DNA of 63,998 bases from a virus (Duplodnaviria; Caudoviricetes), in IMG/VR virus record IMGVR_UViG_3300035182_000918, positions 1 through 63,998 of that record; one strand, written 5' to 3'. Position numbers and translations under genes: made by a program. The notes beneath the pieces were generated by a model. That model was not told where the DNA came from, did no database searches, and saw nothing but the letters and a program-made list of their open reading frames with translations. Below are positions 1 through 63,998 of this stretch, piece after piece (positions within the stretch are counted from its first letter, which is position 1; every line of letters starts with the position of its first letter).

Positions 1-166
1 TAACGGTCATAATTAATAATACTGTATTAATAGTCAGTAGAAAAAATGGTATCATTGTTTTTTCTATAAACAGGCGTATTTGCTGTAATCTTACTAAATA
101 CTGTTGTAGTTCTTGAATACGCTTTTGTTCCTCTTGCTTCATTATTTCTTGTTTACTCATTCTCAT
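1..166 (-). CDS. Membrane protein, truncated by window start (homolog of 40230..40547)
   Basis: MRMSKQEIMKQEEQKRIQELQQYL start matches the copy-2 ORF. Confidence 0.7.
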   Translation of the reverse strand, partial: MRMSKQEIMKQEEQKRIQELQQYLVRLQQIRLFIEKTMIPFFLLTINTVLLIMTV

Positions 167-359
167 TATCGCCCCCTAAATCCGTTCCAAAACCATCGTA
201 TTTTTTAAGTTCTTTATTTGTCTTTAGATAATTAAGTGCAATGCCTATAGCTATTTCAGCCCTGTTTAGTTCCTCTATATCCTTGTCCTTGTAAGATGAA
301 ATAATATCATCAACTTCAGCCTTGACTTTGTCCTCTATTGTCATTAGCTTTTTTGCCAT
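153..359 (-). CDS. Hypothetical phage protein
   Basis: 68 aa, conserved in copy 2 (40504..40710). Confidence 0.75.
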   Translation of the reverse strand: MAKKLMTIEDKVKAEVDDIISSYKDKDIEELNRAEIAIGIALNYLKTNKELKKYDGFGTDLGGDNENE

Positions 360-615
360 ACTTTTCCTCCAATATTTTGGCTATATATTTTGATGCATTT
401 ATTTGATAAAGCCTTTCGCCCAGATATTTCACAGTAGACTTCGGATACTTAACAGCTAAATCTGCAGCTTCAAGTAGTATATCAACTACTTGTGCCTCTG
501 GTAATATTTCCCTAATATCTTCAATCAAGTCCTCTAAAAAGATGTAGTTCGGGTAATAATCCCTTTGTGCTATAACCGCTATAATCAGCTTTGTGTATCC
601 TTCTAACTCATACAT
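316..615 (-). CDS. Hypothetical protein, paralog of the N-terminus of 6595..7056
   Basis: Shared YPNYI..EDL.ED, KYPK and LY.IN..K.IAKIL motifs; conserved in copy 2. Confidence 0.75.
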   Translation of the reverse strand: MYELEGYTKLIIAVIAQRDYYPNYIFLEDLIEDIREILPEAQVVDILLEAADLAVKYPKSTVKYLGERLYQINASKYIAKILEEKYGKKANDNRGQSQG

Positions 616-616
616 A

Positions 617-2110
617 TTAATTAAACATCTCTACCGTTATTTCGTTATTATTAGTCATAGGTAAATAATTGTTTTTTATTATCCTAACCTTTACCCCATT
701 GTAATACCTGTGCAACAGTGCAACCCATCTTGAGTTATCAAATAGTGCTGCTGCACCCCTTAAGCCCTCTTTACTATCGTTGTCCTTTTTTCTTAAGTGG
801 TGTATCATTACGATATTGCTATTGGTTCTTTCAGTTAATCTCATTAATCTTTGGAATATAGCCTCTACAATCTCATTGTTGTTCTCATCGGAAAACAGCA
901 TACCAACTGGGTCTATAAAAACTAAATCGCTGTTAGTTAAATGCTCTTCAACTTTTTCAAAGAAATAATTGCCACGCCTTGTCCATTCACCATCTTTTAA
1001 CAGGTTGATATGGTTTATTCTTTCCACAACTATTTTCCCTGCTATTGCTTCGTAGTTACCGTCAAAATATGTGTCAATTAGGTGTTTAATCCTGTATAGT
1101 ATAATATAATAACTATCTTCAAGACTTATAAAAGTAGTCTTTAATCCCTCGTTAATAGCACCATAAATAGCACAATATAAACTAAACATAGACTTACCTT
1201 CACCACCTCTACTTGCTAATATACCTATAACACCCTTTGGTATATTTAAGAGTTCAGGTAATAATATTTGAGGCTCTGGTATTGGTTGAGTTAAAGCTTC
1301 TATATCAATTACATACTTTTGGGTTTCCACATTCTTATACAAGTAATCAGCGTTATCAAGTAATACCCAAAAGTCCTCTTCGGAAGACTCTTGAATAAAG
1401 TCAGCAATGTCATAACCTTTTTTAGGGTTACCTCTAAACCTTACAATTCTTATTGTATTCACTATAGGTTCAAGTGTTTTTTGAATAGCTTTTGTATTAC
1501 GATATCCAGTCTCATCATTGTCTTCAAATATAACTATATTTGCTTGTCTAAAGTATTCTTCTAAATATTCTTGATATTGAACCTCAAAACTGTTAAAACC
1601 AAGCACTATTGCGTTTGCATCAATAGCAAAAGGTTTTAATGCTTCAGCACATTTTTCACCTTCAGTCAACCAAATCTCGGTATCCATACTACGCTTTTGT
1701 GGCAACTGTTGCAAATTATACAATACTTGGGTTACGCCTTTTGGTTCTATTTTAAAGGTTTTCTTACCGTCCTTTTCATAGCGATATTTCTTATATAACT
1801 CATTACCATCTAAATCTTTGTAAACATACACCACAACATTATCCACATTGTTTAAATCAAGATTACTGTTCTTAAATTCACCCATTTCTTTAACCCCCAT
1901 TAATTGTAAAAATCGTTTATAATTTCCGTGAACACCACAACCGAAACAGTGGAATGCTCCAGTCTCTGGATTTATTCCCAAACTTGGGTTGTGGTCTTCG
2001 TGAAAAGGGCAGGTTGCAAGGTAGTTATTTCCTACTTTTTTTATATCCAAATACTTGTTATAAAGTTTAAGATAATCAGGTTTCACTAATGCTAAATTCA
2101 TTTTCTTCAC
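617..2110 (-). CDS. Primase-helicase (CHC2 zinc finger, TOPRIM, RecA-like/AAA_25 helicase)
   Basis: CPFHEDHNPSL and FHCFGC zinc finger; EGEK and EDND TOPRIM; SRGGEGKS Walker A, VFIDP Walker B, HHLRK and LRGA motifs. Confidence 0.9.
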   Translation of the reverse strand: MKKMNLALVKPDYLKLYNKYLDIKKVGNNYLATCPFHEDHNPSLGINPETGAFHCFGCGVHGNYKRFLQLMGVKEMGEFKNSNLDLNNVDNVVVYVYKDLDGNELYKKYRYEKDGKKTFKIEPKGVTQVLYNLQQLPQKRSMDTEIWLTEGEKCAEALKPFAIDANAIVLGFNSFEVQYQEYLEEYFRQANIVIFEDNDETGYRNTKAIQKTLEPIVNTIRIVRFRGNPKKGYDIADFIQESSEEDFWVLLDNADYLYKNVETQKYVIDIEALTQPIPEPQILLPELLNIPKGVIGILASRGGEGKSMFSLYCAIYGAINEGLKTTFISLEDSYYIILYRIKHLIDTYFDGNYEAIAGKIVVERINHINLLKDGEWTRRGNYFFEKVEEHLTNSDLVFIDPVGMLFSDENNNEIVEAIFQRLMRLTERTNSNIVMIHHLRKKDNDSKEGLRGAAALFDNSRWVALLHRYYNGVKVRIIKNNYLPMTNNNEITVEMFN

Positions 2111-2628: not shown

Positions 2629-3600
2629 CTACTTCTCCAGTTTAAATAGTTGCTCCTGTGCCTGCCTGCAAAACGGTGCAGCTTTGCAGTATAAAGCGCA
2701 ATTCATAACACCTTCCCTTTCCTCAATTGTATATTTTTTATCTGGATTATCCTTAACAAACATTTCAGCTTCTACTTTTGTATTAAACACCTTAATAGCA
2801 CTCTTGCGTTTTGGTTGTTTTATAGCATAGGTTGTTGGTCTTAACATCTTTTCATCATCAGAACAGATATCCAACTCATACAAATCCTGCGGTGCCAACT
2901 CTATTAGCTTTTTATACAAGTAAATACGCTCCGACAAATATTTCTCTACATCTTCCATAGGCATTACATTAACAGCCACGACTGTCACATTTTCTTTTGG
3001 GTAATCGCTTTGACTTGTTTTTGATTGTTGCCAACCATCCCAAAAGAATGTTATATCAGCCTTTACTATTTGGGTTAACCTTTCTTCTGTATTTGCTCCC
3101 AGATAGCGATAAACCGATAATTGCTTTTCATAATTTGCATAAGTTCCAAAGACATACTTATAAGTGTTTGCTGTCTTCCAATCCACAAGCTTTTCATCTG
3201 GAAAAGAAACAAGGTCAATAACGCCTTTTATTGTAATATCATCAATTGTTAATTTAACAGGATACTCAACCAAATAATCCTCTTCTTTTGTTATCTCTCT
3301 TAAAAATTCAGGCTTGATATCTACATAATCACCGTTTAAAACCGCCCTTAAGTAATCAGAATAAAATTCATTTTTAATCTTTGTTGTAGCATAAAGAAGT
3401 GCTATTTGATTGTGTAATGCTGTTCCCTTAAAAGCACGAAAAGTATCTCTTTTGTTCGTAGGTAAATCTACTTTCTTTTTCAAAGCTGCCGCTTTTAAAG
3501 AGCCTATAATATCAGTGACCCCCACAGTATGGGGGTCTTTATTTTGAGGGTGTAAATTACTTATTGACTCGTATAAATCATCTAAATACTTTGTCATCAC
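2629..3600 (-). CDS. PD-(D/E)XK Cas4-like recombination exonuclease
   Basis: GTALH, GVIDL...VDWKT, QLSVY and C-terminal CALYCKAAPFC cysteine cluster. Confidence 0.8.
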   Translation of the reverse strand: MMTKYLDDLYESISNLHPQNKDPHTVGVTDIIGSLKAAALKKKVDLPTNKRDTFRAFKGTALHNQIALLYATTKIKNEFYSDYLRAVLNGDYVDIKPEFLREITKEEDYLVEYPVKLTIDDITIKGVIDLVSFPDEKLVDWKTANTYKYVFGTYANYEKQLSVYRYLGANTEERLTQIVKADITFFWDGWQQSKTSQSDYPKENVTVVAVNVMPMEDVEKYLSERIYLYKKLIELAPQDLYELDICSDDEKMLRPTTYAIKQPKRKSAIKVFNTKVEAEMFVKDNPDKKYTIEEREGVMNCALYCKAAPFCRQAQEQLFKLEK

Positions 3601-4127: not shown

Positions 4128-4691
4128 TTATACCACTTCTTTTAAATTTGTCAAATCTTTTGTTTCACCCAACATTTGCAATTCTAAATAATATAACGCT
4201 AAAGCATCTATAGTATTCATTCCTTTACCAGTCCAGTTATTATGAGATATTCTTCTATGTAGTTTTTTAGGAATATATATTACGGTTTCTTTGTCTTGTA
4301 GGTGATGGGCTTCTGAACCTTTAAAGTGTCCGTTTAATGGTCTAAAACCTAATCGTCGTCTTTTGTAACGCATTCTAAGATAAACCATCTTCTTTCCTCC
4401 TTTCCATTTTGAATGTTCTTCACCATATTTGCCATACATTGGGTTGTTTTCACCTTTTTTGGCTCTGCTCATTCTTACTTTAAATTCTTCCGAATGATGC
4501 TTACCATACATTGGGTGATTTTCACCTTTACAAGCTTCACTTATACTTCTGCTTTTTATACCAAATTCTTTCATTCGTCTCCTAATGGTGCTATCGCTTG
4601 TTCCTAATTTTTTAGCAACTTTTCTTAAAGATAGTTTTTGATTAATATATAAATCTTCAATTTCTTTTTTGCTTACACTAAATCTTCTCAT
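4128..4691 (-). CDS. Homing-endonuclease-like protein (HTH, NUMOD3 repeats, HNH-like C-terminus); copy 1 only
   Basis: GENHPMYGKHHSEE and GENNPMYGK NUMOD3 motifs; EAHH...LHRRISHN. Confidence 0.7.
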   Translation of the reverse strand: MRRFSVSKKEIEDLYINQKLSLRKVAKKLGTSDSTIRRRMKEFGIKSRSISEACKGENHPMYGKHHSEEFKVRMSRAKKGENNPMYGKYGEEHSKWKGGKKMVYLRMRYKRRRLGFRPLNGHFKGSEAHHLQDKETVIYIPKKLHRRISHNNWTGKGMNTIDALALYYLELQMLGETKDLTNLKEVV

Positions 4692-5148: not shown

Positions 5149-5628
5149 CTAATTTTCTAATATATCACTTTTTTTAGATTTGTCAAGTAAAAAATTCAAA
5201 GCATACAACCCTATACATACGGCATCGGCTGTATCAAAAGACCTCATAATTTGCCCTGTAAATTTTTCAGCGTAAGCCAATGATGCCTGCTTTCTTTCCC
5301 TTCTGGGTGCTTTTGCTCCTAACTCTAATATCTTCTGCCACTCTGAAGCCGACACTCTAATTATGCTACCCATTGGGTTGCAAACCCTGTAAAGCGTCGT
5401 TACTTCCGCTCGTAAAGCCACCAAATCCATTAGAACTTTTGCATTGTTGTAATAATACTGCAACTCAATTGCAAGATGTTTTGCGGGATTTTTAAGCAAA
5501 AACTGCCACATAGCATTAAAAGAGTAATCAAATGTGTTGCAATAGCGTAGTGTTTTGTCTTTCCACAAAGCAACACCTAAACGCTTGCCTGGATCTACAC
5601 TTATAAGGTCGTAAATTGTAATACTCAT
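5149..5628 (-). CDS. RuvC-like Holliday junction resolvase
   Basis: ISVDPG, AIE, SEWQK and DTADAVCIG catalytic pattern. Confidence 0.8.
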   Translation of the reverse strand: MSITIYDLISVDPGKRLGVALWKDKTLRYCNTFDYSFNAMWQFLLKNPAKHLAIELQYYYNNAKVLMDLVALRAEVTTLYRVCNPMGSIIRVSASEWQKILELGAKAPRRERKQASLAYAEKFTGQIMRSFDTADAVCIGLYALNFLLDKSKKSDILEN

Positions 5629-10125: not shown

Positions 10126-11217
10126 CTATTGTCGTATGGGTGTCATTACTAATATAAAATTGTTTGCTCTCATTTCTAAAGGTTTTATAGGCTCTTTAAA
10201 ATAGAAAGTGATATCATTGATATTGTCGGGAAGTGTTTTTAAGAAATCTAAAGTGTATTTACCATTGATTGCTAAATCATAGCTTGTAATATCATTGTCA
10301 GTATTATTTTGATAATCAATATTAGCTTCTGCATTGTCATTTGATAATAACATTTGATTGTTTGTAAACTTTACATTAACGGCTATTGAATCCTTTGTTA
10401 ATAATCCGTTTAATGCGTTTATCATTTCTTGCTTGTTAAACATAATTGTGTTTATACCTTCATTACCTTCTAATAAAACGGCTTGATATTGTGGGAAATT
10501 ACCTTTTTGAAGTGGTGCTATTAATTTTAACTGTTTATTGTCAATAGAAAAAGATATATAATCACTATTTGCATTTAAATAAATATCACTTTTGCATTTA
10601 TTAAATAACTTTATAAATGCATTTATCGCTTTGTGATTTATTAGTTCATAAAAGTCTTTTAAGTAATTAGAATCCGTGCCGTTTAAATAGTACCAGTATA
10701 ATTTACTTCTATCGGTTCCCACTGCATTAAATACATTATCTTTGATTTCAATTAAAACATTAGAAAAAACATCCTGCTCATCTTTGTTTACAGCTTTTAC
10801 TACTTTTAATAACTGCAATAAATCATTAGCATTTATTACAGCCTTTAAATCTAAACTTACATTATTAGGAACTTCAAAGCCACTAACATCTTTAAACACT
10901 TGTTTAGTTGTTTTAATATTGCTTGAAGTGATTAAAGCCGTTTGATTGTCAATGTCAATTGTAAAGTTAGCATCCGACTTGAAATCAAAAAAGTCAGCAG
11001 GTGCTAAAAAAGTATTCTCATTAGTGTCATTTAAAGAGTTGTCAATTTTAACTAAACTTGTCAAGAAATATTCTTCATTGTAAGTATAAACTCTTAAATA
11101 ACCAGCACCTACTTTGCAGTAAAAATGTCTTGTTACTAAATATCTGTCTTTAGATAATCCGACCTTAAGCGCCTGCAAGTCTTTTAATGCTTGCTTTGAA
11201 AGTGTAAAACTTAACAT
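10126..11217 (-). CDS. DNA polymerase III beta-clamp-like protein (start reassigned to MLSFTL)
   Basis: ~360 aa; AVGTDRSKL, GNFPQYQAVL and AINGKYTLDFLK...IKPL...LVMTPIR resemble DnaN motifs; AGGAGG RBS. Confidence 0.8.
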   Translation of the reverse strand: MLSFTLSKQALKDLQALKVGLSKDRYLVTRHFYCKVGAGYLRVYTYNEEYFLTSLVKIDNSLNDTNENTFLAPADFFDFKSDANFTIDIDNQTALITSSNIKTTKQVFKDVSGFEVPNNVSLDLKAVINANDLLQLLKVVKAVNKDEQDVFSNVLIEIKDNVFNAVGTDRSKLYWYYLNGTDSNYLKDFYELINHKAINAFIKLFNKCKSDIYLNANSDYISFSIDNKQLKLIAPLQKGNFPQYQAVLLEGNEGINTIMFNKQEMINALNGLLTKDSIAVNVKFTNNQMLLSNDNAEANIDYQNNTDNDITSYDLAINGKYTLDFLKTLPDNINDITFYFKEPIKPLEMRANNFILVMTPIRQ

Positions 11218-11253
11218 AAGGAACCTCCTAAAAAAAATTTTTTTTCTTATTAA

Positions 11254-11283
11254 GTAATATACACATTTTTTATAATTTGTCAA
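11254..11283 (-). promoter_or_regulatory. Early cassette promoter
   Basis: TTGACAAATTATAAAAAATGTGTATATT. Confidence 0.75.
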
Positions 11284-12310: not shown

Positions 12311-12355
12311 AAAACACCTCTTTAAATAAATTTGCAAGCTTTTTGCTTGCTAATA

Positions 12356-12385
12356 ATAATATACATATTTTTTATAAAAAGTCAA
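12356..12385 (-). promoter_or_regulatory. First early promoter of the leftward arm
   Basis: TTGACTTTTTATAAAAAATATGTATATTAT. Confidence 0.75.
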
Positions 12386-12530
12386 GTTTTTTATAAATTA
12401 TGTATAATTAAGATAAAACTGTTATTACAAGCAAAACAAGGTATAAAAAAAATAAAGTAAAAAATGATTGATTTTTTCTAAAAAACTTGAAAATACTAAA
12501 GAAGAATTTTACCAAAAAAAAGATAGTAAA

Positions 12531-12831
12531 TAAGTAACTAACTTGTGCGATAGTGGTCGAGGGTAATAAGCTAACTTGTTAACCTGCCAAACTTAACAAC
12601 TTAACATCTATGAAGTTAGTAATATATATAACTCAATCATATACAATAGGTAACAATCCCACTAACTTATTTAGTTATCACTTGATAACAAAAGTTAGCA
12701 AATGCTAACAATGTATTACAATGTCTTACAATGTTAGACAAGGCTAACAATCCTGTATAGCAATTGTATAGCAAGTGTATAGCTAACTATTTACTCAAGT
12801 GATTGATTAATTAGTGAGTAAGTAACTAACT
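12531..12831. repeat. Copy-specific short-repeat segment flanked by TAAGTAACTAACT direct repeats
   Basis: DR at 12531 and 12819; internal ACAATG and TGTATAGC repeats. Confidence 0.7.
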
Positions 12832-13019
12832 ATTTTGACTGGCTGCGATTTTAAGATTGGGCTGGCGCGTAGACTGTTACGCGCGAGCCCCTCATTGCTT
12901 TCCCCCGCAAACATAGGGTTGCAGTTACACTTGCATTCGCAAGTGGGCTTACAGCAACACTTACCTTACGCTGTCGCTTTGCTTTTGCTTTTTTGCTTTT
13001 GCAAAAAAAGAAAAGAAAA

Positions 13020-13381
13020 GAAAAAGAAAAACAAGAGAAAAGAAAGAAGCAAAGAAAAAAGAAATAAAAGAAAAAGAAAAGAAAAGAAAACCTATCCCCC
13101 TAAAGGGGGATAGATAATAAATATAAATATATATATCTTATCGCGCGCGCACGCACACGCGCGCGTAGCAAAAACTGTTCCAGCCCGTTGCGAAGCAAGG
13201 GCTGGGATTTCCACGCCTATCGGCGTGGGGTTTTCGCCCGCAAAGCGGGCATTACCACCCGCGCTAACGCGCGGTTATGTGCTCGCCTTTAGGGCGAGCA
13301 TAGACACCCAGCCCTAACGGGCTGGATTGATTGCTTCTTTTCCTCCCTTAAAATCCCCTTCTGGCAATGCGAAGCATTGCC
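13020..13381 (+). other. Hairpin-array element R
   Basis: Purine tract, CTATCCCCC-TAAA-GGGGGATAG, AT tract, (CG/CA)n, GTAGCAAAA, then seven GC-rich hairpins. Confidence 0.8.
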
Positions 13382-13551
13382 TTTGAAAAACAGGGCGTTA
13401 TATTTATTTTTATATAACACTATCTTTTCTGTTGTTATAACAGGACTATTTCGTTATTTCAAAAAATATAATATCAATATTAAAAATTGTCTTTTTTTTA
13501 TAAAGATATTTTTAGCAAGATATTATTGTGATAACAACAAATTTAGGTCTC

Positions 13552-13581
13552 TTGACACCACAACTACTTTCGTGCTATAAT
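13552..13581 (+). promoter_or_regulatory. Structural-arm promoter
   Basis: TTGACA-N18-TATAAT with extended TG; identical at 56143-56172. Confidence 0.8.
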
Positions 13582-13660
13582 ATATATAGGGGGAAAAGTA
13601 GGGTGAGTAAAATAATCCGCTTTTTAAGAGCGTTAATATAAATTAATCAGGGAGGCGTAA

Positions 13661-14059
13661 ATGTCGGCTATTAAGATTCTTGACCCAAAGGTTGTTAAAA
13701 CGATTGACAACATACTTGAGAGCAACTACAAAGTGTTTGAGGAAGAAAAAGAACGCAAGCAGGAAAGACAAAAAGCAATGCAGCAAACTGAAGAAATAAT
13801 TTTAAGAAAAATGCCTGTTACGAAAAGAATGAAGTATCTGAATATGCAAAAAGACAAAAAACTTCAAGAAGAGTTAAAAGGGCATTGGGCATCGGAAAAC
13901 GAAGTTATTCAGTATAGAGATAAAACTCCTAAAATGCCGATTGATATAAGCCTTGAAGATGTTGTTAATAAAATTCAGCCACAGAAAATCAAGGTTACTG
14001 GCGTAAACTACGATAAAAACGGCAACGAAATAATAACGCAAGGTGAGAGAACTCTATGA
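13661..14059 (+). CDS. Hypothetical protein preceding the portal
   Basis: GGGAGG RBS; conserved in copy 2. Confidence 0.75.
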   Translation: MSAIKILDPKVVKTIDNILESNYKVFEEEKERKQERQKAMQQTEEIILRKMPVTKRMKYLNMQKDKKLQEELKGHWASENEVIQYRDKTPKMPIDISLEDVVNKIQPQKIKVTGVNYDKNGNEIITQGERTL

Positions 14060-15732
14060 ACAAACAAGAGATGCTTGAAGCCATAGAAAGACTAAAAAGC
14101 AAATTATCCTACAACAAGGAGTATCTACGACAGAAATATAGCTACTACTACTTCGGAACACCTACAAATTTTCCCGCCAAAGTAAATAATATTTTCTCAA
14201 CCGTCAACCAGCTTGAGAGTTTAATCTTCAGTGCTGACCACTTAATACTTGAGCCAAGACTTGATGACAGCTTGGACGAAACAGAAAGCAAAGAGTTCGT
14301 TGAGAAAATTGTTAGTAAATTAGCCGATGTTATTAGTGAAGATTTTAGGAACACAAAATCAGACGACGAGTTAAGCAAAATTATTCTTGATTCTTTAATT
14401 ACTAAAAATGGCTTTGGTAAAATTATATATAACTCTGAAGGGTTTTGGGAGACACCAAAGGTAATCCGATTAAACCCCTACAATGTGGCTGTCGGTTATG
14501 ATAGCTTTAATATACGAGACTTATCTCAAATTATTATGCACCGAACTTATATGACAGCAAGAGAGTTTGAGGTTAGGTATCCTGATTCTTACAAAAAGCT
14601 GAAAACAAAACAGAGAAAAGAAATGGCTGAACAAACTTCAGAAGACATCAATCAAGATTTAGCAATTAAGCTTTTACCAGCCACTCCAACACAAACAGGT
14701 GGTCAAATCCCTTATCAGATTAAACCAGACCAGACTGGAGTAGTTAACAGACAGCCAGTATTTGATTTAGTTGAAATGGTTGAGTTATGGTATTACAACT
14801 TTGACGATGATAATATTGAACACAAAAATAAGTGGGTTGAGAATATTATTGTTGATGATTTAGTTTTGGAAACAAGATATCATATGGCCAATCCATTCTT
14901 CTCAATAATAACACTGGATTATGCGACAGATGAATATGGGTATTCCGTTATTAGCTTAATTGAAAGCATTCAAGACGCAATGGAAGATATATACGAAGAT
15001 GTTCAAAGTGCACGAAAAAGGCTAATTAACCCACCAGTCTTAATATCAGGATTTGGTATTAACCCTGAAGTAAAAGACGAAATAGAAAGAGCAATTAAAA
15101 CACCAGGCAGTGTAGAAACTGTTGATGCACAAGGCGTTAAAATTGACACATATGAGTCTAAAATACAACCACAGGTTGCAATGGAAGAAAAACAAACACT
15201 TGAACAAGATGCACAAAAAGTCTTAAGTATGACAAGCATAATGCAAGGTGTTCCTGCAAAGAATGTAAGGTCAGCAAGCTATGCACAAATCTTAAGTCAG
15301 TTTTCATCGGCACCTATTAAGAAGATTGCCGTTAAAATAGAAAAACAGGTTGAGGATATGTTTAACACTCTTGCTGAAATCTATATACAAGCCTCAACTA
15401 TAAAATACAAGATGTTACTAAAAAACGAAACACTTACATTCAATTTTTCTAATTTAAGTTTGATTAATTGGGGTAGGATTTGCGTATATGCACATTCAAC
15501 AAGCCCAATCATAGAAGAGCAAAATCAAATGCTATTAATGCAGTTAGCAGATATGGGTATAATACCAAAAGAGATTTTAGTAGAGGTTTTGGATTTACCG
15601 TTTAAAGATAGAATTTTGGCATATCTTAAAAAACAAGAAATGGAACAACAAGCAATGGCAATGTCACAGCAACATATGGAAGAGGCAAAGAAACTGGGAG
15701 ATATGAAAAAAGATGCTGAAAAGAAAAAGTAG
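14056..15732 (+). CDS. Portal protein (podovirus-like)
   Basis: 558 aa, helical; GFGKI...IRLNPYN, YGYSVISLIESIQD, Gln-rich tail; first large gene of the head module. Call is by pattern and synteny. Confidence 0.75.
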   Translation: MNKQEMLEAIERLKSKLSYNKEYLRQKYSYYYFGTPTNFPAKVNNIFSTVNQLESLIFSADHLILEPRLDDSLDETESKEFVEKIVSKLADVISEDFRNTKSDDELSKIILDSLITKNGFGKIIYNSEGFWETPKVIRLNPYNVAVGYDSFNIRDLSQIIMHRTYMTAREFEVRYPDSYKKLKTKQRKEMAEQTSEDINQDLAIKLLPATPTQTGGQIPYQIKPDQTGVVNRQPVFDLVEMVELWYYNFDDDNIEHKNKWVENIIVDDLVLETRYHMANPFFSIITLDYATDEYGYSVISLIESIQDAMEDIYEDVQSARKRLINPPVLISGFGINPEVKDEIERAIKTPGSVETVDAQGVKIDTYESKIQPQVAMEEKQTLEQDAQKVLSMTSIMQGVPAKNVRSASYAQILSQFSSAPIKKIAVKIEKQVEDMFNTLAEIYIQASTIKYKMLLKNETLTFNFSNLSLINWGRICVYAHSTSPIIEEQNQMLLMQLADMGIIPKEILVEVLDLPFKDRILAYLKKQEMEQQAMAMSQQHMEEAKKLGDMKKDAEKKK

Positions 15733-15797
15733 TTCTTTATTTCCTTACAAAGGTGGGCAACTCTCGTGTAAGGAAAAATTCAGTGAGGAGGTGCCAA

Positions 15798-15839
15798 ATG
15801 TTGGTAGCCGAGAAAAGGGGTCGCAAGGTAAAAAGATAG
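15798..15839 (+). CDS. 13-aa basic micropeptide MLVAEKRGRKVKR
   Basis: AGGAGGT RBS with canonical spacing; identical at 58388..58429. Confidence 0.5.
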   Translation: MLVAEKRGRKVKR

Positions 15840-15874
15840 TCTGTAAAACAGCTATCTCGGGTGTGCTACTCAAA

Positions 15875-15900
15875 GGGGCTACTTCGGTAGTCCCCGCTTT
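15875..15900 (+). terminator. UUCG hairpin or weak terminator
   Basis: GGGGCTAC-TTCG-GTAGTCCC followed by CGCTTT. Confidence 0.5.
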
Positions 15901-15923
15901 AGACTAATTATGGAGGTTTTTAG

Positions 15924-17180
15924 ATGATTGGAAAAGAATATACACTACAAAACATAGATAACAATTCAAATGGAATAACCTATAAAGGCTATACTGCAAC
16001 AAGTGGCGAATGGTGTATTATAGCTGATGACGGAACAAACCAAAGGGCTGCTTATGGTCCAAAAGGCTATTCATCTGCTTGGGCAAACCGAGTGGGGTTT
16101 ATGTATGCACAGGAAGCCCCAAAAAACTTGTATATTAGCACAACTGGTGCAAGTGCTAATTCAATAGCTATGTATGACACTAATATACAAAAGTTAGTTC
16201 CTGCTACAGCTTATATCAATTTTGATACTACCAGCACCAAGATTGGTTATTTAACTCTCCAAAACAATACCACAGGTAATTACAATACTGCTATTGGTGC
16301 TATAGTTCTCCTAAACAATACCACAGGTAGTGGCAATACTGCTATTGGTTCTTTAGCTATAGAATACAATACTACAGGTCACGACAATACTGCTATTGGT
16401 GTTACCGCTCTCCAAAACAATACTACAGGTTACGACAATACTGTTATTGGCGTTGCAGCTCTCCAAAACAATACTACAAGTGGTTACAATACTGCTATTG
16501 GTGTTTCAACTCTCCTTGATTTAGGTTCACCACAAACAGCAGGAAGTTTTAATATTGGAACAAGTTACACTATACAATCAATAGGAACCACTGATTTTAC
16601 CCTCATTGGAGCATCTTCCAATACGGTAGGAGTAACATTTACAGCAACTGGAGTGGGTTCAGGAACAGGAACGGCTACTCCTAATAGTATAAACAACAAT
16701 ACTGCAATTGGATATAATGCAGGTAGAGGGATTATTTACGGCACAGGAAACACTATTGTTGGTGCTAATGTAACTGGATTGTCTGCAGGATTGACAAACA
16801 ATATTATCTTAGGAAATGGAACTGGAACAATAAAAGCACAACACGATGGCACCAATTGGACTTTAACAGGAAACGTCAATACAACTGGTGCATTAAATTG
16901 TAATTTAATTACAACCCTTACAGGCACAACCGCAGGAAGCGTCAAGTGGTCGCAGTATATGCAGGGTCAATTCAAGGCTTTTGCAGCACAGTTTTTGAGT
17001 TATGAAAACAATACAACTACATCACAGACTATTACATTCCCAACGTCCTTTGTAAATACACCAGTAGTAGTGACAAATACTACAGGATTAACAATTACAG
17101 TAACTACAACAACTCTAACAATAGGTGCACCCAACAATACTACAACCTACAGTGGTATTGTAAAGGTAGAGGGATTTTAA
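15924..17180 (+). CDS. Fibre/receptor-binding protein with beta-roll repeats
   Basis: 14-aa NNTTG..NTAIG..AL repeats; Thr/Gly rich. Confidence 0.7.
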   Translation: MIGKEYTLQNIDNNSNGITYKGYTATSGEWCIIADDGTNQRAAYGPKGYSSAWANRVGFMYAQEAPKNLYISTTGASANSIAMYDTNIQKLVPATAYINFDTTSTKIGYLTLQNNTTGNYNTAIGAIVLLNNTTGSGNTAIGSLAIEYNTTGHDNTAIGVTALQNNTTGYDNTVIGVAALQNNTTSGYNTAIGVSTLLDLGSPQTAGSFNIGTSYTIQSIGTTDFTLIGASSNTVGVTFTATGVGSGTGTATPNSINNNTAIGYNAGRGIIYGTGNTIVGANVTGLSAGLTNNIILGNGTGTIKAQHDGTNWTLTGNVNTTGALNCNLITTLTGTTAGSVKWSQYMQGQFKAFAAQFLSYENNTTTSQTITFPTSFVNTPVVVTNTTGLTITVTTTTLTIGAPNNTTTYSGIVKVEGF

Positions 17181-17195
17181 TTTTTAGGAGGTCTT

Positions 17196-17510: not shown

Positions 17511-17518
17511 GAGGGAAA

Positions 17519-46701: not shown

Positions 46702-46711
46702 ATTACACCTC

Positions 46712-51130: not shown

Positions 51131-51351
51131 AAAACACCTCCAAAATTTTTTCTTAATAATATACATACTTTTTAATAAAAGTCAAGTGTTTTGTTTGTGT
51201 TTTTGTATTTGTATTTGTTTTTGTATTTGTTTGCATTTGTTTCATTTTACAGCCCTCGCTTTTTATCATTTAGTTATATATATCAATTTCTAATATATAT
51301 TTGCTTACACAAGCTACGCTTAACTTAATAATATAAAACAAAAAAGCGCGC

Positions 51352-51603
51352 CTATTGCGCGCCTTCATTTATTAAATTGTCAATAAATTGTTTGTAATCT
51401 TTTTCAATACTTTTTACATAATCTAAACTATCATTGTTTATTTTGTAAATGTTATAACCTGCAAAATTATTATTGCCTAACTGTTTACTAAATTCAATAA
51501 CCAAAAAATCTTTATAGATTTTATATTTTCTATCTCCAAACAACCTTTTGTTTATCCTGCTAAAAAAAGCAGGATATTTGCTTTTTAACTCTACTAACTT
51601 CAT
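51352..51603 (-). CDS. Early protein, paralog of 53812..54060; copy 2 only
   Basis: ELK.KY..FF.R.NKRLFGD...FAGYNIYKINNDSLDYVKSIEK shared. Confidence 0.7.
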   Translation of the reverse strand: MKLVELKSKYPAFFSRINKRLFGDRKYKIYKDFLVIEFSKQLGNNNFAGYNIYKINNDSLDYVKSIEKDYKQFIDNLINEGAQ

Positions 51604-51691: not shown

Positions 51692-52786
51692 CTATCTTAA
51701 GATAGGAGTCATTACTAAAATGTAATTATCGGCTCTAAACTCTAAAGGGTGCTGATTATCTTTAAAATACATTATAATATTATCAATATTTACAGGCAGT
51801 GTTTTAAGATAATCTAATAAATATTTACCATTAATTTTAACTTGCAGGTTTGTTTTGTTTTCATAGTCAAGAATTGACTCGCTTTCTTTTGTTTTTAATG
51901 TTAGCTTGTCATTTAAGATAAAATCAACTGGTGTTAAATCCTCTTTATAACCATTTAATAAAGTTTGTAAAGTATTAATCATATTGTCTTTATTAAACTT
52001 TATAGAGTTTATGCCTTCGTGATTTACTTCTAATAAAACCATTTCATATCGCGGAAAGGTGCCTTCTATTAATTTTGTTATTAATTTTACTTTGTCATTA
52101 TTAAATGCAAAACTAACATACTCATTATTGCTATTAATGTAAATATCGCCGTTGTATTTACCTATAATTTTAGTTAGTGCATTAATAGCTTTTTCATTAA
52201 TAATGCCATAAAAATCTTTTAAATAGTTTTGCTCATTACCTTTAAATATAGACCAGTATAGCTGGCTTCTATTAGTAGCCACACTATTAAATACATTATC
52301 TTTGATATCAAATAAAACGCTTTTAAATACTTCATAATTCTCATATTTATCTTTGTATACCGCGTTCTTTACTTTTAACAACTGCAATAAATCATTAGCA
52401 TTTATTACAGCTATTAAATCCATATTGTCATTTGTAAACAGCGGGAAGCCATTTGCATCTTTGAATACCTGTTTATTACTTTTAATATTGTTTGAAGTAA
52501 TTACTGCCGTTTGATTATCAATATCAATATTATATTGACAATCGCTTTTAAAATCAAAGAAGTCGTTTACTGCTAAAAACTCGTTCTCGTTTGTGTTATT
52601 ACTTGCATTGTCAATCTTAACAAGCCTTGTTAAATAATAATCATTGTTAAAAGCATAGACTCTTAAGTAATTAGCTCCGACTTTACAATAAAAATAATTA
52701 TTTATTGAATATCCGTTTTTAGATAATCCGACCTTTACCGCCTGCAAGTCTTTTAACGCTTGCTTTGAAAGTGTAAAACTTAACAT
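51692..52786 (-). CDS. Beta-clamp-like protein (copy 2, diverged allele)
   Basis: Same N-terminus as copy 1; EGTFPRY, INGKYLLDYLK, LVMTPILR. Confidence 0.8.
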   Translation of the reverse strand: MLSFTLSKQALKDLQAVKVGLSKNGYSINNYFYCKVGANYLRVYAFNNDYYLTRLVKIDNASNNTNENEFLAVNDFFDFKSDCQYNIDIDNQTAVITSNNIKSNKQVFKDANGFPLFTNDNMDLIAVINANDLLQLLKVKNAVYKDKYENYEVFKSVLFDIKDNVFNSVATNRSQLYWSIFKGNEQNYLKDFYGIINEKAINALTKIIGKYNGDIYINSNNEYVSFAFNNDKVKLITKLIEGTFPRYEMVLLEVNHEGINSIKFNKDNMINTLQTLLNGYKEDLTPVDFILNDKLTLKTKESESILDYENKTNLQVKINGKYLLDYLKTLPVNIDNIIMYFKDNQHPLEFRADNYILVMTPILR

Positions 52787-53044
52787 ACAAAACCTCCTAA
52801 AAAAGTTTTTTCTTATTAATAATATACACATTTTTTATAATTTGTCAAGTGTTTTTTTGTTTTTGTTTTTGTTTGTTTTTGTTTTAATTTTTGTTTTTTC
52901 ATTTTTGCAATCCTCATTTTTTAAATTAGTTATAAAGCAATTACTTGCTTGTATAACTTGGTGATGTATATTATTTACCAATATACATTACTAAATTATA
53001 TAAATAAAACAAAACAAAAAAGCGCGCTTTATCGCGCGCTCTTA

Positions 53045-53558: not shown

Positions 53559-53811
53559 AAAACACCTCTTTTAAATAAATTTACAAGCTTTTTGCTTGCT
53601 AATAATAATATACACATTTTTTTATAAAAGTCAAGTATTTTTGTTTGTATTTGTGGTTGGTTGTTTTTGTTTTTGTTTGTATTTGTCATTTCTAAAAAAC
53701 TCCACTTTTAATAAATTGGTTATAAAGTAATTACTTACTTATATAACTTGATAATATATATTAGTAAATAATATATATTACTAAATTATATAAATAAAAA
53801 AGGCGTGTTTA

Positions 53812-54060
53812 TCACACGCCCTCTTTTATCAAATTGTCAATAAATTCTTGATAATTTTTTTCAATGCTTTTTACATAATCTAAACTATCATTGTTAATTT
53901 TATAAATATTATAACCTGCAAACTTGTATTTACCAATTTGCTTTTCAAATTTTATTACTAAATAACCTTTATAAACTTTATAACCTTTATCACCAAACAA
54001 TCGCTTATTTGCTCTATCAAAAAAATCTTTATACTTGTTTTTTAATTCTTTTACTGTCAT
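53812..54060 (-). CDS. Early protein, paralog of 51352..51603
   Basis: High similarity to 51352..51603. Confidence 0.7.
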   Translation of the reverse strand: MTVKELKNKYKDFFDRANKRLFGDKGYKVYKGYLVIKFEKQIGKYKFAGYNIYKINNDSLDYVKSIEKNYQEFIDNLIKEGV

Positions 54061-55506: not shown

Positions 55507-55624
55507 TTTTAATTGGCAAGGCACCAAAACCAGGCACGCGTGAGTCCCTCATTGCTTTCCCCCGCAAAACATACCCTTGAGTTACACTTGCTATCGCTTT
55601 GCTTTTGCTTTTTTGCTTTTGCAA

Positions 55625-55972
55625 AAAAAAGAAAAGAAAAGAAAAAGAAAAACAAGAAAAAAGAAAAGAACCAAAAGAAAAAAGAAATAAAAGAATAAGA
55701 AAAGAAAAGAAACCTATCCCCCTAAAGGGGGATAGATAATAAATATAAATAAATATATCTTATCGCGCGCGCACGCACACGCGCGCGTAGCAAAAACTGT
55801 TCCACGCCTATCGGCGTGGGGTTTTTGCCCGCAAAGCGGGCATTATCACCCGCGCTAACGCGCGGTTATGGGCTCGCCTTTAGGGCGAGCATAGACACCC
55901 AGCCCTAACGGGCTGGATTGATTGTTTCTTTTCTTCCCTTAAAATCCCCTTCTGGCAATGCGAAGCATTGCC
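55625..55972 (+). other. Hairpin-array element R (second occurrence)
   Basis: Homolog of 13020-13381, lacking the 13180-13205 hairpin. Confidence 0.8.
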
Positions 55973-56250: not shown

Positions 56251-56649
56251 ATGTCGGCTATTAAGATTCTTGATCCAAAGGTTGTTAAAACAATTGACAA
56301 CATACTTGAGAGCAACTATAAAGTGTTTGAAGAAGAAAAAGAACGCAAGCAAGAAAGACAAAAAGCAATGCAGCAAACTGAAGAAATAATTTTAAGAAAG
56401 ATGCCTGTAACCAAAAGAATGAAGTATCTGAATATGCAAAAAGACAAGAAACTTCAAGAAGAGTTAAAAGGGCATTGGGCATCAGAGCAAGAAGTTATTC
56501 AGTATAGAGATAAAACCCCTAAAATGCCGATTGATATAAGCCTTGAAGATGTTGTTAATAAAATTCAGCCGCAGAAAATCAAGGTTACTGGCGTAAACTA
56601 CGATAAAAACGGCAACGAAATAATAACTCAAGGTGAGAGAACTCTATGA
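56251..56649 (+). CDS. Hypothetical protein preceding the portal (second occurrence)
   Basis: Homolog of 13661..14059. Confidence 0.75.
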   Translation: MSAIKILDPKVVKTIDNILESNYKVFEEEKERKQERQKAMQQTEEIILRKMPVTKRMKYLNMQKDKKLQEELKGHWASEQEVIQYRDKTPKMPIDISLEDVVNKIQPQKIKVTGVNYDKNGNEIITQGERTL

Positions 56650-58322
56650 ACAAACAAGAGATGCTTGATGCTATAGAAAGACTAAAAAGCAAACTCTCAT
56701 ACAACAAGGAATATCTACGACAGAAATATAGCTACTACTATTTCGGAACGCCTACAAACTATCCAGCCAAAGTAAATAATATTTTCTCAACCGTTAACCA
56801 GCTTGAGAGTTTAATATTCAGTGCAGACCATTTGATACTTGAACCAAGACTTGACGACAGTTTGGACGAAACAGAAAGCAAAGAGTTCGTTGAGAAAATT
56901 GTTAGCAAATTAGCCGATGTTATTAGCGAGGACTTTAGAAACACAAAATCAGACGACGAGTTAAGCAAAATTATTCTTGATGCTTTAATCACTAAAAATG
57001 GCTTTGGTAAAATTATATATAACTCTGAAGGGTTTTGGGAGACACCAAAGGTAATCCGATTAAATCCCTACAATATGGCTGTCGGTTATGATAGCTTTAA
57101 TATACGAGACATATCTCAAATTATTATGCACCGAACTTATATGACAGCAAGAGAGTTTGAAGTTAGGTATCCTGATGCTTACAAGAAGCTTAAGGCAAAG
57201 CAGAGAAAAGAAATGGCAGAGCAGACTTCAGAAGACATCAATCAAGATTTAGCAATTAAGCTTTTACCAGCCACTCCAACACAAACAGGTGGTCAAATTC
57301 CTTATCAGATTAAACCAGACCAGACTGGAGTAGTTAATAGACAACCAGTATTTGATTTGGTTGAAATGATTGAGTTATGGTATTACAACCTTGACGATGA
57401 TAACATTGAACACAAAAACAAATGGGTTGAAAATATTGTTGTTGATGATTTAGTTTTGGAAACAAGATATCATATGACTAATCCATTCTTCTCAATCATA
57501 ACGCTTGATTACGCAACAGATGAATATGGGTATTCTGTTATTAGTTTAATTGAAAGTATTCAAGATGCAATGGAAGATATATACGAAGATGTTCAAAGTG
57601 CACGAAAAAGGTTAATTAACCCACCAGTTTTAATATCAGGATTTGGTATTAACCCTGAAGTAAAAGACGAAATAGAAAGAGCAATTAAAACACCAGGTAG
57701 CGTAGAAACTGTTGATGCACAAGGCGTTAAAATTGACACATATGAGTCTAAAATACAACCGCAAGTTGCAATGGAAGAAAAGCAAACACTTGAACAAGAC
57801 GCACAAAAAGTCTTAAGTATGACAAGCATAATGCAGGGTGTTCCTGCAAAGAATGTAAGGTCAGCAAGCTATGCACAAATCTTAAGTCAGTTTTCATCGG
57901 CACCCATTAAGAAGATTGCTGTTAAAATAGAAAAGCAAGTTGAGGATATGTTTAACACTCTTGCTGAAATCTATATACAAGCCTCAACTATAAAATACAA
58001 GATGTTATTAAAAAACGAAACGCTTACATTCAATTTTTCTAACTTGAGTTTAATTAACTGGGGTAGAATTTGCGTATATGCACATTCAACAAGCCCAATT
58101 ATTGAAGAACAAAATCAGATGTTGTTAATGCAGTTAGCAGATATGGGCATAATACCAAAAGAGATTTTAGTAGAGGTTTTGGATTTACCGTTTAAAGATA
58201 GAATTTTGGCATATCTTAAAAAACAAGAAATGGAACAACAAGCAATGGCAATGTCGCAGCAACATATGGAAGAGGCAAAGAAGCAGGGAGATGTGAAAAA
58301 GGATGCTGAAAAGAAACAGTAG
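56646..58322 (+). CDS. Portal protein (second occurrence)
   Basis: Homolog of 14056..15732. Confidence 0.75.
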   Translation: MNKQEMLDAIERLKSKLSYNKEYLRQKYSYYYFGTPTNYPAKVNNIFSTVNQLESLIFSADHLILEPRLDDSLDETESKEFVEKIVSKLADVISEDFRNTKSDDELSKIILDALITKNGFGKIIYNSEGFWETPKVIRLNPYNMAVGYDSFNIRDISQIIMHRTYMTAREFEVRYPDAYKKLKAKQRKEMAEQTSEDINQDLAIKLLPATPTQTGGQIPYQIKPDQTGVVNRQPVFDLVEMIELWYYNLDDDNIEHKNKWVENIVVDDLVLETRYHMTNPFFSIITLDYATDEYGYSVISLIESIQDAMEDIYEDVQSARKRLINPPVLISGFGINPEVKDEIERAIKTPGSVETVDAQGVKIDTYESKIQPQVAMEEKQTLEQDAQKVLSMTSIMQGVPAKNVRSASYAQILSQFSSAPIKKIAVKIEKQVEDMFNTLAEIYIQASTIKYKMLLKNETLTFNFSNLSLINWGRICVYAHSTSPIIEEQNQMLLMQLADMGIIPKEILVEVLDLPFKDRILAYLKKQEMEQQAMAMSQQHMEEAKKQGDVKKDAEKKQ

Positions 58323-58513: not shown

Positions 58514-59356
58514 ATGATTTCAAAAGAATATACACTACAAAATATAGATAACAATTCAAATGGAATAACCTATAAAGGCTATACTGCAACAAATGGTGAA
58601 TGGTGTATTATAGCTGATGACGGAACAAATCAAAGGGCTGCTTATGGTCCTAAAAACTATTCAGCTGCTTGGGCAAACCGAGTGGGGTTTATGTATACAC
58701 AGGAAGCCCCAAAAAACTTGTTTATTAGTAATGCAGGTGCAAGCACGGGATTAGTAACTGTATTTGATAGTAGTTTACAAAAGTTGGTGCCTGCGGTTAC
58801 TGGAGTAGCGGTTAAGACAGGAAAAAATACACTTGATGATGGAAGTGGAAATGCTGATATTAGTGGAGGTATAGATTTTGGTAATTATGCTACGCTAAGC
58901 ACTGGTGGATTACCCATATTACAGCGTAACGGTAGTGATAATGGTATAAATATTATATGTTTAGCCGATATATGTCATTTTTATAATGCTGCACAAAGCA
59001 CAGTATTGATGAATTTAACAAGTAGTGGACTCACCCTTAATGTTGGAAATTTCCAATTAAGTGGAGCATTAAATTGTAACTTAATCACAACCCTTACTGG
59101 CACAACCGCAGGAAGCGTGAAGTGGTCGCAATATATGCAAGGACAATTCAAGGCTTTTGCAGCACAGTTTTTGAGCTATGAAAACAATACTACTACAAGT
59201 CAGACTATTACATTTCCAACATCGTTTGTAAACACACCAGTAGTAGTGACAAATACTACGGGATTAACAATTACAGTAACTACAACAACATTGACAATAG
59301 GTGCACCAAATAACACTACACTTTACAGTGGAATAGTAAAAGTAGAAGGTTTTTGA
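58514..59356 (+). CDS. Fibre/receptor-binding protein, alternative central domain
   Basis: N- and C-termini match 15924..17180; middle is unrelated. Confidence 0.7.
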   Translation: MISKEYTLQNIDNNSNGITYKGYTATNGEWCIIADDGTNQRAAYGPKNYSAAWANRVGFMYTQEAPKNLFISNAGASTGLVTVFDSSLQKLVPAVTGVAVKTGKNTLDDGSGNADISGGIDFGNYATLSTGGLPILQRNGSDNGINIICLADICHFYNAAQSTVLMNLTSSGLTLNVGNFQLSGALNCNLITTLTGTTAGSVKWSQYMQGQFKAFAAQFLSYENNTTTSQTITFPTSFVNTPVVVTNTTGLTITVTTTTLTIGAPNNTTLYSGIVKVEGF

Positions 59357-62278: not shown

Positions 62279-62833
62279 ATGCAAATAACACAAGAAGAGT
62301 TAGATTTGTTAGACCCAGAAACCCAACAGAAGATACTTGCTATGACGCAGGAGTATGAACAGGCAACAAAGGTTAAAAATGAACTACAGGATTTTATGAA
62401 TAAGGTTTACTCTAATCCGCAGTTGAAACAGCAGTTTGAACAAGTAGTAAAACAAGTAGACCCAAATGTAGAACTTCCAAAAAGTCCTATTGAAAGTTAT
62501 ATTGACCCAATCAAACAAGAGTTTGAAGCTTTCAAACAAGAACAAGCAAGAAAGGAACTAAAAGCACGATTGGAAGCAAGAGCAAGACAACTTGGTATTA
62601 CACCAGAAGAGTATCCTAAAATAGATGAAATTATGGTTCAAAAGAAAATGCTTGATATGGAAACCGCTATGGAATACTATGCAGCGGTTAGGGACAGGAG
62701 TAGAGGGTTGACAACAAGTGTTGCTGATAATGATATATTGTCAAGTGTTAACAAACAGGCTGAAATATATGACCTAAACACAGCAAAACAAAAAGCACTT
62801 GAAAAAATTAGATACATACAAGGAGGATTTTAA
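62279..62833 (+). CDS. Putative scaffold (second occurrence)
   Basis: Homolog of 20072..20626. Confidence 0.55.
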   Translation: MQITQEELDLLDPETQQKILAMTQEYEQATKVKNELQDFMNKVYSNPQLKQQFEQVVKQVDPNVELPKSPIESYIDPIKQEFEAFKQEQARKELKARLEARARQLGITPEEYPKIDEIMVQKKMLDMETAMEYYAAVRDRSRGLTTSVADNDILSSVNKQAEIYDLNTAKQKALEKIRYIQGGF

Positions 62834-62835
62834 AA

Positions 62836-63126
62836 ATGGCTAACAAAGTCAATTTCGGGGTAACGGGCACAGGTGGGGATTATTTAGGTTCACCTATAAC
62901 ATTGAGTATTTCGGCAAGTTCAAGTCAGGTTATTACACAAAAAGGCTACTACTATGTATTGCCTGATACAAACGGCACACTACAAATGAATGTAAACAGC
63001 ACTTGGACAAATATGGCAACAGCGGGAAACGGTGGATTAATTTACAGCGATGGAGCAAGTTTTAGGGTATCAGCAAATGCTAGTGGAAGCACAACTAAAC
63101 TTGTTCAAGCATTATACTTACATTAA
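62836..63126 (+). CDS. Putative decoration protein (second occurrence)
   Basis: Homolog of 20629..20919. Confidence 0.45.
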   Translation: MANKVNFGVTGTGGDYLGSPITLSISASSSQVITQKGYYYVLPDTNGTLQMNVNSTWTNMATAGNGGLIYSDGASFRVSANASGSTTKLVQALYLH

Positions 63127-63141
63127 AAGGGGGAATAAAGA

Positions 63142-63998
63142 ATGGCAGGCATAACAACTACTACAGGCACAGGTCCTTTAATAGGACAGGGATTTTATCC
63201 TACTTCGGCGCAAAGCGCACAGAACTATATCAATGTAATGCTTCCAGAGATAATGCCGAGCGTTATCTATGAAGGCGTTAGGAAGGCACGACCAACATTA
63301 AGGTTGCTGCTTAAGAAAACACAGAAACCACTAAAAGGTGGTTGGGCTCCAATCAATCAACCAGTGTCATTTCAGACATTTGGTAACAACGGTAACTGGA
63401 CAGGTATGAGCGGTAGCTTCAATATCCCAACTATTTCCAACCCAATACAAAACTTACAGTTCTTACCATCACTGTATATCAACCCAATATCTTATCTCTT
63501 AACCGAAGAGGTAATGATGGAATCTCCAAATGCGGTAATAGATGTTGTTGCACAAAGGATTACAGACGCATATGAAACAATGTTTGATAACCTTAACTCA
63601 ACAATATTGGGAACAATGGGCACCAACTCGTTGCAAATGCAAGGGTTATATGATATCGTAGATAACGGAACAAACCAGTCATACTACGGTGGACTAACAA
63701 GAGCAAGCTATACATATCTGAACTCTAAAATATTCAGTTACTCTGCTGGTATATTCTCTTCAACACCAACGGCTTATCAGATAGTTCACAGATACTTGCT
63801 ATCGTTCTTAAACGATACTAACTACAGAATACCTGATGTAGGTATTACATCATTTGCGGTATTTTCTGCATTAACAGAGTCAATGGCAAGTATAGAAAGG
63901 GTTCAAGTTCAAGACCCAGCAAGAATAGCTGACAGCAGGGATTGGGCAGTTCAGGTAGTAAGCGTAGATGGTGTTCCAATTCTACCAGACCCAAGCAT
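63142..63998 (+). CDS. Major capsid protein, truncated by window end
   Basis: MAGITTTTGTG start; homolog of 20935..22002. Confidence 0.8.
   Translation, partial: MAGITTTTGTGPLIGQGFYPTSAQSAQNYINVMLPEIMPSVIYEGVRKARPTLRLLLKKTQKPLKGGWAPINQPVSFQTFGNNGNWTGMSGSFNIPTISNPIQNLQFLPSLYINPISYLLTEEVMMESPNAVIDVVAQRITDAYETMFDNLNSTILGTMGTNSLQMQGLYDIVDNGTNQSYYGGLTRASYTYLNSKIFSYSAGIFSSTPTAYQIVHRYLLSFLNDTNYRIPDVGITSFAVFSALTESMASIERVQVQDPARIADSRDWAVQVVSVDGVPILPDPS

Follow-up and report, generated by a model that had tools for sequence, protein, structure and literature searches.

The subject of this work is IMG/VR virus record IMGVR_UViG_3300035182_000918, a contig of a phage known from metagenomes of sediments and microbial mats, in which a long block of genes occurs twice, head to tail. 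The window, by which we mean the whole stretch of DNA that was analysed, takes in the whole of the record, a single contig of 63,998 bp with a G+C content of 33.3% and no N, which IMG/VR places in the end class 'linear'. Self-BLAST aligned positions 1-21791 with positions 40352-63998 in nine long co-linear blocks. Eight of these were 88.9-95.0% identical, and the ninth, the clamp block, was 73% identical. Copy 1 of the repeated part (1-21791) holds early and replication genes on the minus strand (1-12.3 kb), an intergenic region of about 1 kb, and the genes from portal to major head on the plus strand. The single-copy part (21792-40351), for which self-BLAST found no second copy, contains the 3' end of the major head gene, structural genes and the genes for a lytic tail protein, a metallophosphoesterase, a small HTH protein, the large terminase and an endolysin, together with a very short transfer-messenger RNA (tmRNA) gene, here called the mini-tmRNA. 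Copy 2 (40352-63998) is 89% identical to copy 1 over the aligned columns and is 1,856 bp longer. The duplicated sequence makes up 21,791 bp (34%) plus 23,647 bp (37%) of the 63,998 bp.

The genes are arranged in two divergent arms separated by the intergenic region of about 1 kb (12338-13376). The minus-strand arm runs from 12.3 kb down to position 1, and then from 40351 down to 32.8 kb. It encodes a sliding-clamp-like factor, a YopX-family protein, a RuvC-like resolvase, a PD-(D/E)XK exonuclease and a primase-helicase, and also the endolysin, the large terminase, the small HTH protein and the metallophosphoesterase. The plus-strand arm (13.4-32.8 kb) encodes portal-like, tail-spike-like, fibre-like and major head proteins, as well as the lytic tail protein, which has 1,435 amino acids and a transglycosylase end. 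The large terminase gene is present in a single copy (34924-36792, minus strand; phrog_2, E 9e-18). The intact gene for the major head protein lies at 20935-22002 (phrog_9953, E 1.8e-25).

The offset between the two copies was 40,351 at the start, rose to a maximum of 42,670 and was 42,209 at the end. The size of one unit is 40,351 bp if copy 1 is counted with the single-copy part, or 42,207 bp if the single-copy part is counted with copy 2. The contig thus comprises about 1.5 units and is longer than its own repeat period. In a global alignment of the two copies, 18,027 of the 20,223 aligned columns (89.1%) were identical, and 4,992 gap columns were distributed over 111 gaps. With this identity and with 51 indels of at least 10 columns, the units are not the identical units of a concatemer of one genome. 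The contig also lacks the exact repeat at both ends that marks a complete circular genome or one with direct terminal repeats; its terminal 470 bp match an internal site and not the contig start.

We compared 13 orthologous pairs of open reading frames (ORFs) on protein-guided alignments and found 414.5 synonymous and 123.5 non-synonymous differences. The ratio of non-synonymous to synonymous rates (dN/dS) was 0.062 when pooled and ranged from 0.03 to 0.29. Because of this low pooled ratio, copy 1 and copy 2 are natural alleles under purifying selection and not noise. The primase-helicases (617-2110 and 40968-42461, minus strand) are 97.8% identical in amino acid sequence, and the portal-like proteins (14056-15732 and 56646-58322, plus strand) are 97.5% identical. 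The copies also differ in gene content. Copy 1 alone has an HNH/homing endonuclease gene (4128-4691, minus strand), and copy 2 alone has an N6/N4 DNA methyltransferase gene (42972-43715, minus strand; PF01555, E 1.8e-49) and a 1,051-bp insert with two small ORFs (45654-46705, minus strand; ORFs at 45953-46330 and 46339-46701). The tail-spike-like gene encodes 418 amino acids in copy 1 (15924-17180, plus strand) and 280 in copy 2 (58514-59356); five 51-bp repeats within it, at 16255-16515, are confined to copy 1. The tail-fibre-like pair, of 349 and 353 amino acids, is 84% identical between the copies. The 385-amino-acid ORF of the sliding-clamp-like processivity factor (10126-11283, minus strand) has its counterpart at 51692-52831 (minus strand) with 59% amino acid identity. 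The initial annotation had described a gene order that repeats with a period of 40.4-42.6 kb, many synonymous changes, different accessory genes and different fibre domains, and the offsets, substitution counts and gene comparisons given here bear out this description. The comparison marks the homing endonuclease, methyltransferase, clamp, tail-spike and fibre genes as the variable places in this phage population, and the record supplies two real sets of alleles for a 22-kb part of a phage lineage about which little is known.

Both ends of the contig lie inside genes. At the right end, the gene for the major head protein is cut and remains as an ORF open at its 3' side (63142-63996, plus strand). 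The last 470 bp (63529-63998) match 21322-21791 exactly, and there the contig stops. Although the two copies share 54 exact runs of at least 55 bp, this is the only one of at least 200 bp; the next longest are 177 and 155 bp. Identity over the last four windows of 500 columns (about 1.7 kb) was 0.948, 0.986, 0.976 and 1.0. At the left end, the contig begins within an open-ended ORF of 55 amino acids (2-166, minus strand), the N-terminal part of a small membrane-like protein of 105 amino acids whose intact gene lies at 40230-40547. The copies are just about 70% identical over the first 100 bp, and three of the four public sequencing runs described below (X1, X2 and X3) contain a joint from 40273 to 40409 that we read as a further allele of this small gene. 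The contig thus starts in a small gene of which at least three alleles exist. We had considered whether this joint was the copy-1 allele joined to the single-copy part, and dropped this idea since the copies become alike from about column 101 and not at 40409. A search of IMG/VR with the copy-1-specific first 40 bases gave no matches. Taken together, the contig ends look like events in an assembly graph, that is, assembly signatures and not genome ends.

The size and shape of the unit can be judged from 11 related contig records (six from IMG/VR and five from metagenomes), none of which exceeds one unit; two of them, L005 and L010, gave identical alignment figures over their shared part and are possibly one sequence filed twice. 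All five relatives that reach the equivalent of position 1 align straight through 40352 into the single-copy part, and all four that reach 21791/21792 cross that point. Two relatives (L003 and L005) span the early genes, the intergenic region at 12.3-13.4 kb and the portal gene, and a third (L007) does so in part. The initial annotation had placed possible genome ends at 12.5-12.9 and 55.1-55.5 kb, from which up to three distinct genomes would follow. This proposal found no support, as relatives run across the region and no mark of a terminus was seen there. Traced on the window, one relative, G001 (35,196 bp), leads from about 16.4 kb down past 1/40351 and on to 22.1 kb, and it covers this path a single time. 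It implies a unit of about 41 kb and covers about 86% of such a circle. The distance from portal to terminase through the early genes is about 16.7 kb in G001, compared with about 17.6 kb in the window when the map is read around.

Over long shared blocks, G001 and the window have about 93% DNA identity. In 17 comparable windows of 400 bp, G001 was closer to copy 1 in five, closer to copy 2 in six and tied in six. It has the methyltransferase region of copy 2 but lacks both the insert of copy 2 and the HNH gene of copy 1. Because its closeness alternates between the two copies, the population is mosaic.

Public sequencing runs were used to look at the strains that occur together. Four runs from four studies (X1-X4) contain 47-80% of the sampled words of 33000-42999, and their Logan contigs were aligned to 20700-40699 at a likeness of at least 88%. 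The numbers of aligned contigs were 1,015, 1,695, 1,144 and 1,534 for X1 to X4, all of them short and falling into every identity class. In X1, for example, 350 contigs were 99% or more identical to the window, 327 were in the class of 95-99%, 282 in that of 90-95% and 56 below 90%. We counted 1,138 variant places on the aligned stretch, and among the 40 of these that were listed a single alternative letter at one place was carried by up to 17 different contigs. A dense swarm of co-occurring strains is present in all four runs. Long exact contigs, of 1.9-3.4 kb, were confined to 27288-32514 (the lytic tail protein gene and the gene preceding it) and were found in X1 and X2. Summed contig depth was lower over 27.4-32.0 kb, which is consistent with a strain-specific tail gene and is not a measure of copy number. 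Two further runs, X5 and X6 ('hot springs metagenome'), had a word share of 0.09; they lie outside the contig alignment and are the basis for no claim about habitat.

Based on these results, we propose that the 64-kb record is most probably a product of the assembler, which went about 1.5 turns round the circular map of a phage of about 41 kb and followed a second strain on its second pass. Such a map may reflect a genome that is circular, circularly permuted or terminally redundant. In the assembly graph, strains that occur together and differ by about 1-12% would give alternative arcs for the 22-kb region. The assembly path may have begun in the multi-allelic small gene, taken one arc, passed through the single-copy part and then taken the other arc. 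The alleles met on the second pass would share too few long exact stretches with those of the first pass to be recognized as the same locus. Finally, the path would have come to a halt after re-entering 470 bp identical to sequence that it had already used. The initial annotation had offered a chimeric assembly of co-occurring strains as one alternative. This part of its proposal is supported by the strain swarm in four of four runs, the 470-bp re-entry, the start in a multi-allelic gene and the failure of any of the 11 relatives to exceed one unit. The other part, a heteroconcatemer or a tandem multi-lysogen, gained no positive support. The 'array of sibling genomes', as the layout was first described, most probably does not exist as biology and should therefore not be read as a new mode of lysogeny or replication.

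Several points weigh against this explanation. It is based on contigs, and not on the reads from which the record was assembled or on the graph and the assembler used. The public runs, too, were seen as contigs, which are unable to phase 40 kb. Of copy 1, the stretch to which they were aligned took in just 622 bp, and of copy 2 just 348 bp, too little to show both complete allele sets in one run. The start of the contig and the end of the single-copy part are not joined by a k-mer overlap, and therefore a simple two-arc bubble model is insufficient by itself. The single-copy part looks like one coherent haplotype; X1 has contigs with zero differences, at a depth of 25-36, over parts of 27288-38739, so that this part, at least, has not been scrambled. 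Lastly, recombinant concatemers between co-infecting strains are biologically possible, given that the phage has genes for an exonuclease and a RuvC-like resolvase. We nevertheless infer with good confidence that it was the assembler, and not biology, that joined the alleles of copy 1 to those of copy 2. This joining has to be inferred because the reads, the graph and the assembler are unseen, the start is without a k-mer overlap and the runs cover those two short pieces of the copies.

If the contig instead reflected a real DNA molecule, it could be a heteroconcatemer formed by recombination-dependent replication in co-infected cells, or an episomal tandem array. Replicative concatemers of double-stranded DNA phages consist of identical units made from one template and exist as single molecules. 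The present contig resembles them in having head-to-tail units and in needing no integrase, but its units are non-identical and are known from the contig alone. The phage has the PD-(D/E)XK exonuclease and the RuvC-like resolvase for such a process, the many strains in each run make co-infection plausible, and all junctions in the contig are natural continuities of the genome. However, an assembly path would show the same natural continuity throughout, and a rare replication intermediate would be lost in a consensus contig made from many reads. The exact re-entry of 470 bp and the ends inside genes are signatures of assembly, and none of the 11 related contigs is longer than one unit. We thus regard a real molecule as improbable. 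Its more specific form, a heteroconcatemer of two strains made by recombination-dependent replication with the phage's own exonuclease and resolvase, seems to us a little more improbable again. If it were true, the contig would be a direct snapshot of the intermediate behind the strain mosaicism of the population.

Integration of two or three tandem copies into a host chromosome is suggested by the tandem layout itself and by nothing further. The initial annotation had noted the lack of both recombinases and host DNA, and we came to the same result. Five hidden Markov models (PF00589, PF00239, PF00665, PF07508 and PF01609), which cover tyrosine and serine recombinases, the large-serine 'Recombinase' domain, rve and DDE_Tnp_1, each gave zero matches in six frames at E<=1, so the integrase or transposase that a tandem prophage calls for was not found. 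Neither host DNA nor att junctions were found in the record. As the window is the entire one-contig record there are no flanking windows, and both ends cut phage genes. No CI-type repressor was seen, the sole hint being an HTH protein of 71 amino acids with a weak match. We consider an integrated double or triple lysogen extremely unlikely, and the missing integrase is unremarkable and needs no special explanation because the phage has its own replication module and no lysogeny markers. A single larger genome of at least 64 kb with a true, diverged internal duplication of 22 kb would agree with the CheckV completeness of 67 given to the record. The duplication would then have to include primase-helicase, portal and head genes at 91-99% amino acid identity, whereas G001 closes a circle of about 41 kb with one copy of each gene and the genome sizes implied by CheckV for the two records contradict each other. 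Such a genome is hardly less unlikely than the integrated lysogen. Non-identical copies would also be expected if two or three separate records had been pasted together in the database. Against this, independent contigs cross 40351/40352, 21791/21792 and the region at 12.3-13.6 kb, so that continuity never breaks, and the sole ends are the contig's own, both inside genes. We give a pasted record as little credit as the lysogen.

For the way in which the record is rated, a comparison with known multi-copy contigs is useful. In its account of such contigs, the CheckV paper (PMC8116208) describes IMG/VR contigs in which the same genome is repeated 2.0-6.8 times, regards them as probable assembly artefacts, detects them by k-mer frequency, and reports that 6,543 contigs with a duplicated region of at least 20% were filtered out. 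The paper also mentions replicative phage concatemers. Like the contigs described there, the record analysed here is one viral contig from a metagenome assembly, free of host DNA and longer than one unit, and its duplication of 34-37% is above the 20% filter. Unlike them, its copies are 89% identical and differ in gene content, its k-mer frequency is 1.11 and not about 1.5, and it was rated 67% complete and not over-long. Over the whole record, the mean frequency was 1.114 for 20-mers and 1.109 for 21-mers, which is not the value well above 1 by which CheckV recognizes repeated genomes, the copies being non-identical. With its k-mer frequency of 1.11 and its completeness of 67%, the record therefore escapes the published routes of detection. 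More generally, k-mer frequency stays near 1 when the copies in a multi-copy contig come from different strains.

The completeness values themselves point to the difficulty. CheckV assigned 67 to the 64-kb record (G000) and 68 to G001 (35.2 kb), and these figures are mutually inconsistent even though, over long shared blocks, the DNA identity of the two records is about 93%. The implied genome sizes are about 96 kb for G000 and about 52 kb for G001, whereas synteny gives about 41 kb. The database call of a linear, 67% complete genome understates a record that already holds the whole genome one and a half times. Records of this kind inflate statistics of genome size and gene count, and they add paralogues that do not exist. 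In this case the phage would be given a second portal, a second primase-helicase and a second clamp.

Related cases have been described. Kallies et al. (PMC10747093), in the part of their report that deals with putative huge phages, found concatemers of small phage genomes among them. The description of circular phage assembly graphs in the Phables paper (PMC10104058) includes strain bubbles and mosaic variant genomes. The present case is like these bubbles in that mosaic strains occurring together have part of their unitigs in common and part not, and in that assemblers pick a path or break. It differs from the bubbles as described there in that a single path appears to run through one arm of a 22-kb variant region and then through the other.

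The place at which the contig stops coincides with a break in G001. The end of G001 (equivalent to position 22094) and that of the window (equivalent to 21791) lie less than about 300 bp apart in the 3' part of the major head gene, and copies 1 and 2 turn identical at this shared breakpoint. It may be a conserved stretch that is common to many strains and impassable for assemblers.

Some features of the phage deserve mention apart from its layout. The sliding-clamp-like gene is the most diverged of the shared genes, with 59% amino acid identity between the copies compared with 91-99% for its neighbours. The flanks of the clamp gene in copy 2 hold extra repeated blocks, such that 51154-51592 resembles 53603-54049. 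We considered whether the ORF at 10126-11283, near the divergent region, was an integrase, and rejected this because Pfam and PHROG scans matched it to a sliding clamp. The initial annotation had also credited the phage with a nuclease, a protein resembling single-stranded-DNA-binding protein (SSB) and RuvC. The nuclease (2629-3600) and the RuvC-like resolvase (5149-5628) were recovered, but no SSB-like protein was found in Pfam and PHROG scans of 47 ORFs, many small ORFs lying outside those scans. The same scans, with the same limit, identified no DNA polymerase in the record. In both copies, the intergenic region holds a purine tract, (AAAAG)n, with a length of about 85-90 bp (13005-13090 and 55623-55712). 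The closest named terminase is that of Hydrogenobaculum phage 1, with 31.8% amino acid identity, and a megablast search of 13000-33000 against 50,697 phage records for near-identical phages gave no matches.

The mini-tmRNA lies at 39909-39989 on the minus strand, where a stretch of 81 nucleotides matches the Rfam tmRNA family RF00023 with 66 bits (gathering score 47) over the tRNA-like domain (TLD) only. It has an acceptor stem with the G3.U70 pair, a helix, a T-arm and an encoded ACCA; the tag-coding part is missing, with 14 nucleotides in place of 308 middle positions of the model. With G3.U70, the T-arm and the 3' ACCA present and the mRNA-like domain absent, it has the sequence features of a TLD-only tmRNA. 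The predicted fold (-28.4 kcal/mol, z = -2.1) agrees with a tRNA-like domain, and a promoter-like TTGACT-16-TATATT ends 7 nucleotides upstream. ARAGORN reported no tRNA and no tmRNA in the window.

The mini-tmRNA is kept in all related contigs that cover this place. Three further distinct sequences of it were counted, from five related records. In the relatives it was located at 6506-6586 in L002, 12473-12553 in L015, 12520-12599 in L010, 5831-5911 in L011, 2334-2413 in L013 and 1235-1315 in L014. The G.U pair at columns 3/75 is retained in all four distinct sequences, and one pair in the helix flips from G.U to U.G. We also asked whether the mini-tmRNA could lead to a host. An exact 32-mer from its 3' half had no matches in the species genome set, and a 23-mer core matched just two unrelated metagenome-assembled genomes (Acidimicrobiales and Desulfomonilaceae), so no usable host inference followed.

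A comparable gene is known from mycobacteriophage DS6A, which, according to the passage on it in PMC4131195, carries a TLD-only tmRNA; the same passage states that a similar molecule strongly inhibits tmRNA, perhaps by titrating SmpB. The gene in the present phage is like that of DS6A, as described there, in that it is phage-borne and has hardly anything beyond the tRNA-like domain of a tmRNA. The two differ in phage lineage and habitat, and the likeness is one of description. A role for the mini-tmRNA as a decoy or hijacker in trans-translation seems likelier than its being the remnant of an attP site, because the record has no integrase and because both halves of the domain and a promoter-like site are present. 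The mini-tmRNA may be a decoy for SmpB and trans-translation.

Two further observations concern the immediate surroundings of the mini-tmRNA. In the relatives of about 80% identity (L010, L011, L013 and L014), alignment to the window breaks off precisely at the 3' end of the mini-tmRNA (39909) and picks up again at 39553-39575. Because the alignments behave in this way, the small gene just downstream (39554-39908) is evidently replaced between lineages. One contig from X3 matches just 39909-39942 (34 bases), and both of its flanks are G+C-rich, unlike the window. This match is probably the 3' end of another organism's tmRNA, which would explain the raised summed depth of the bin at 39376-40042 in all four runs.

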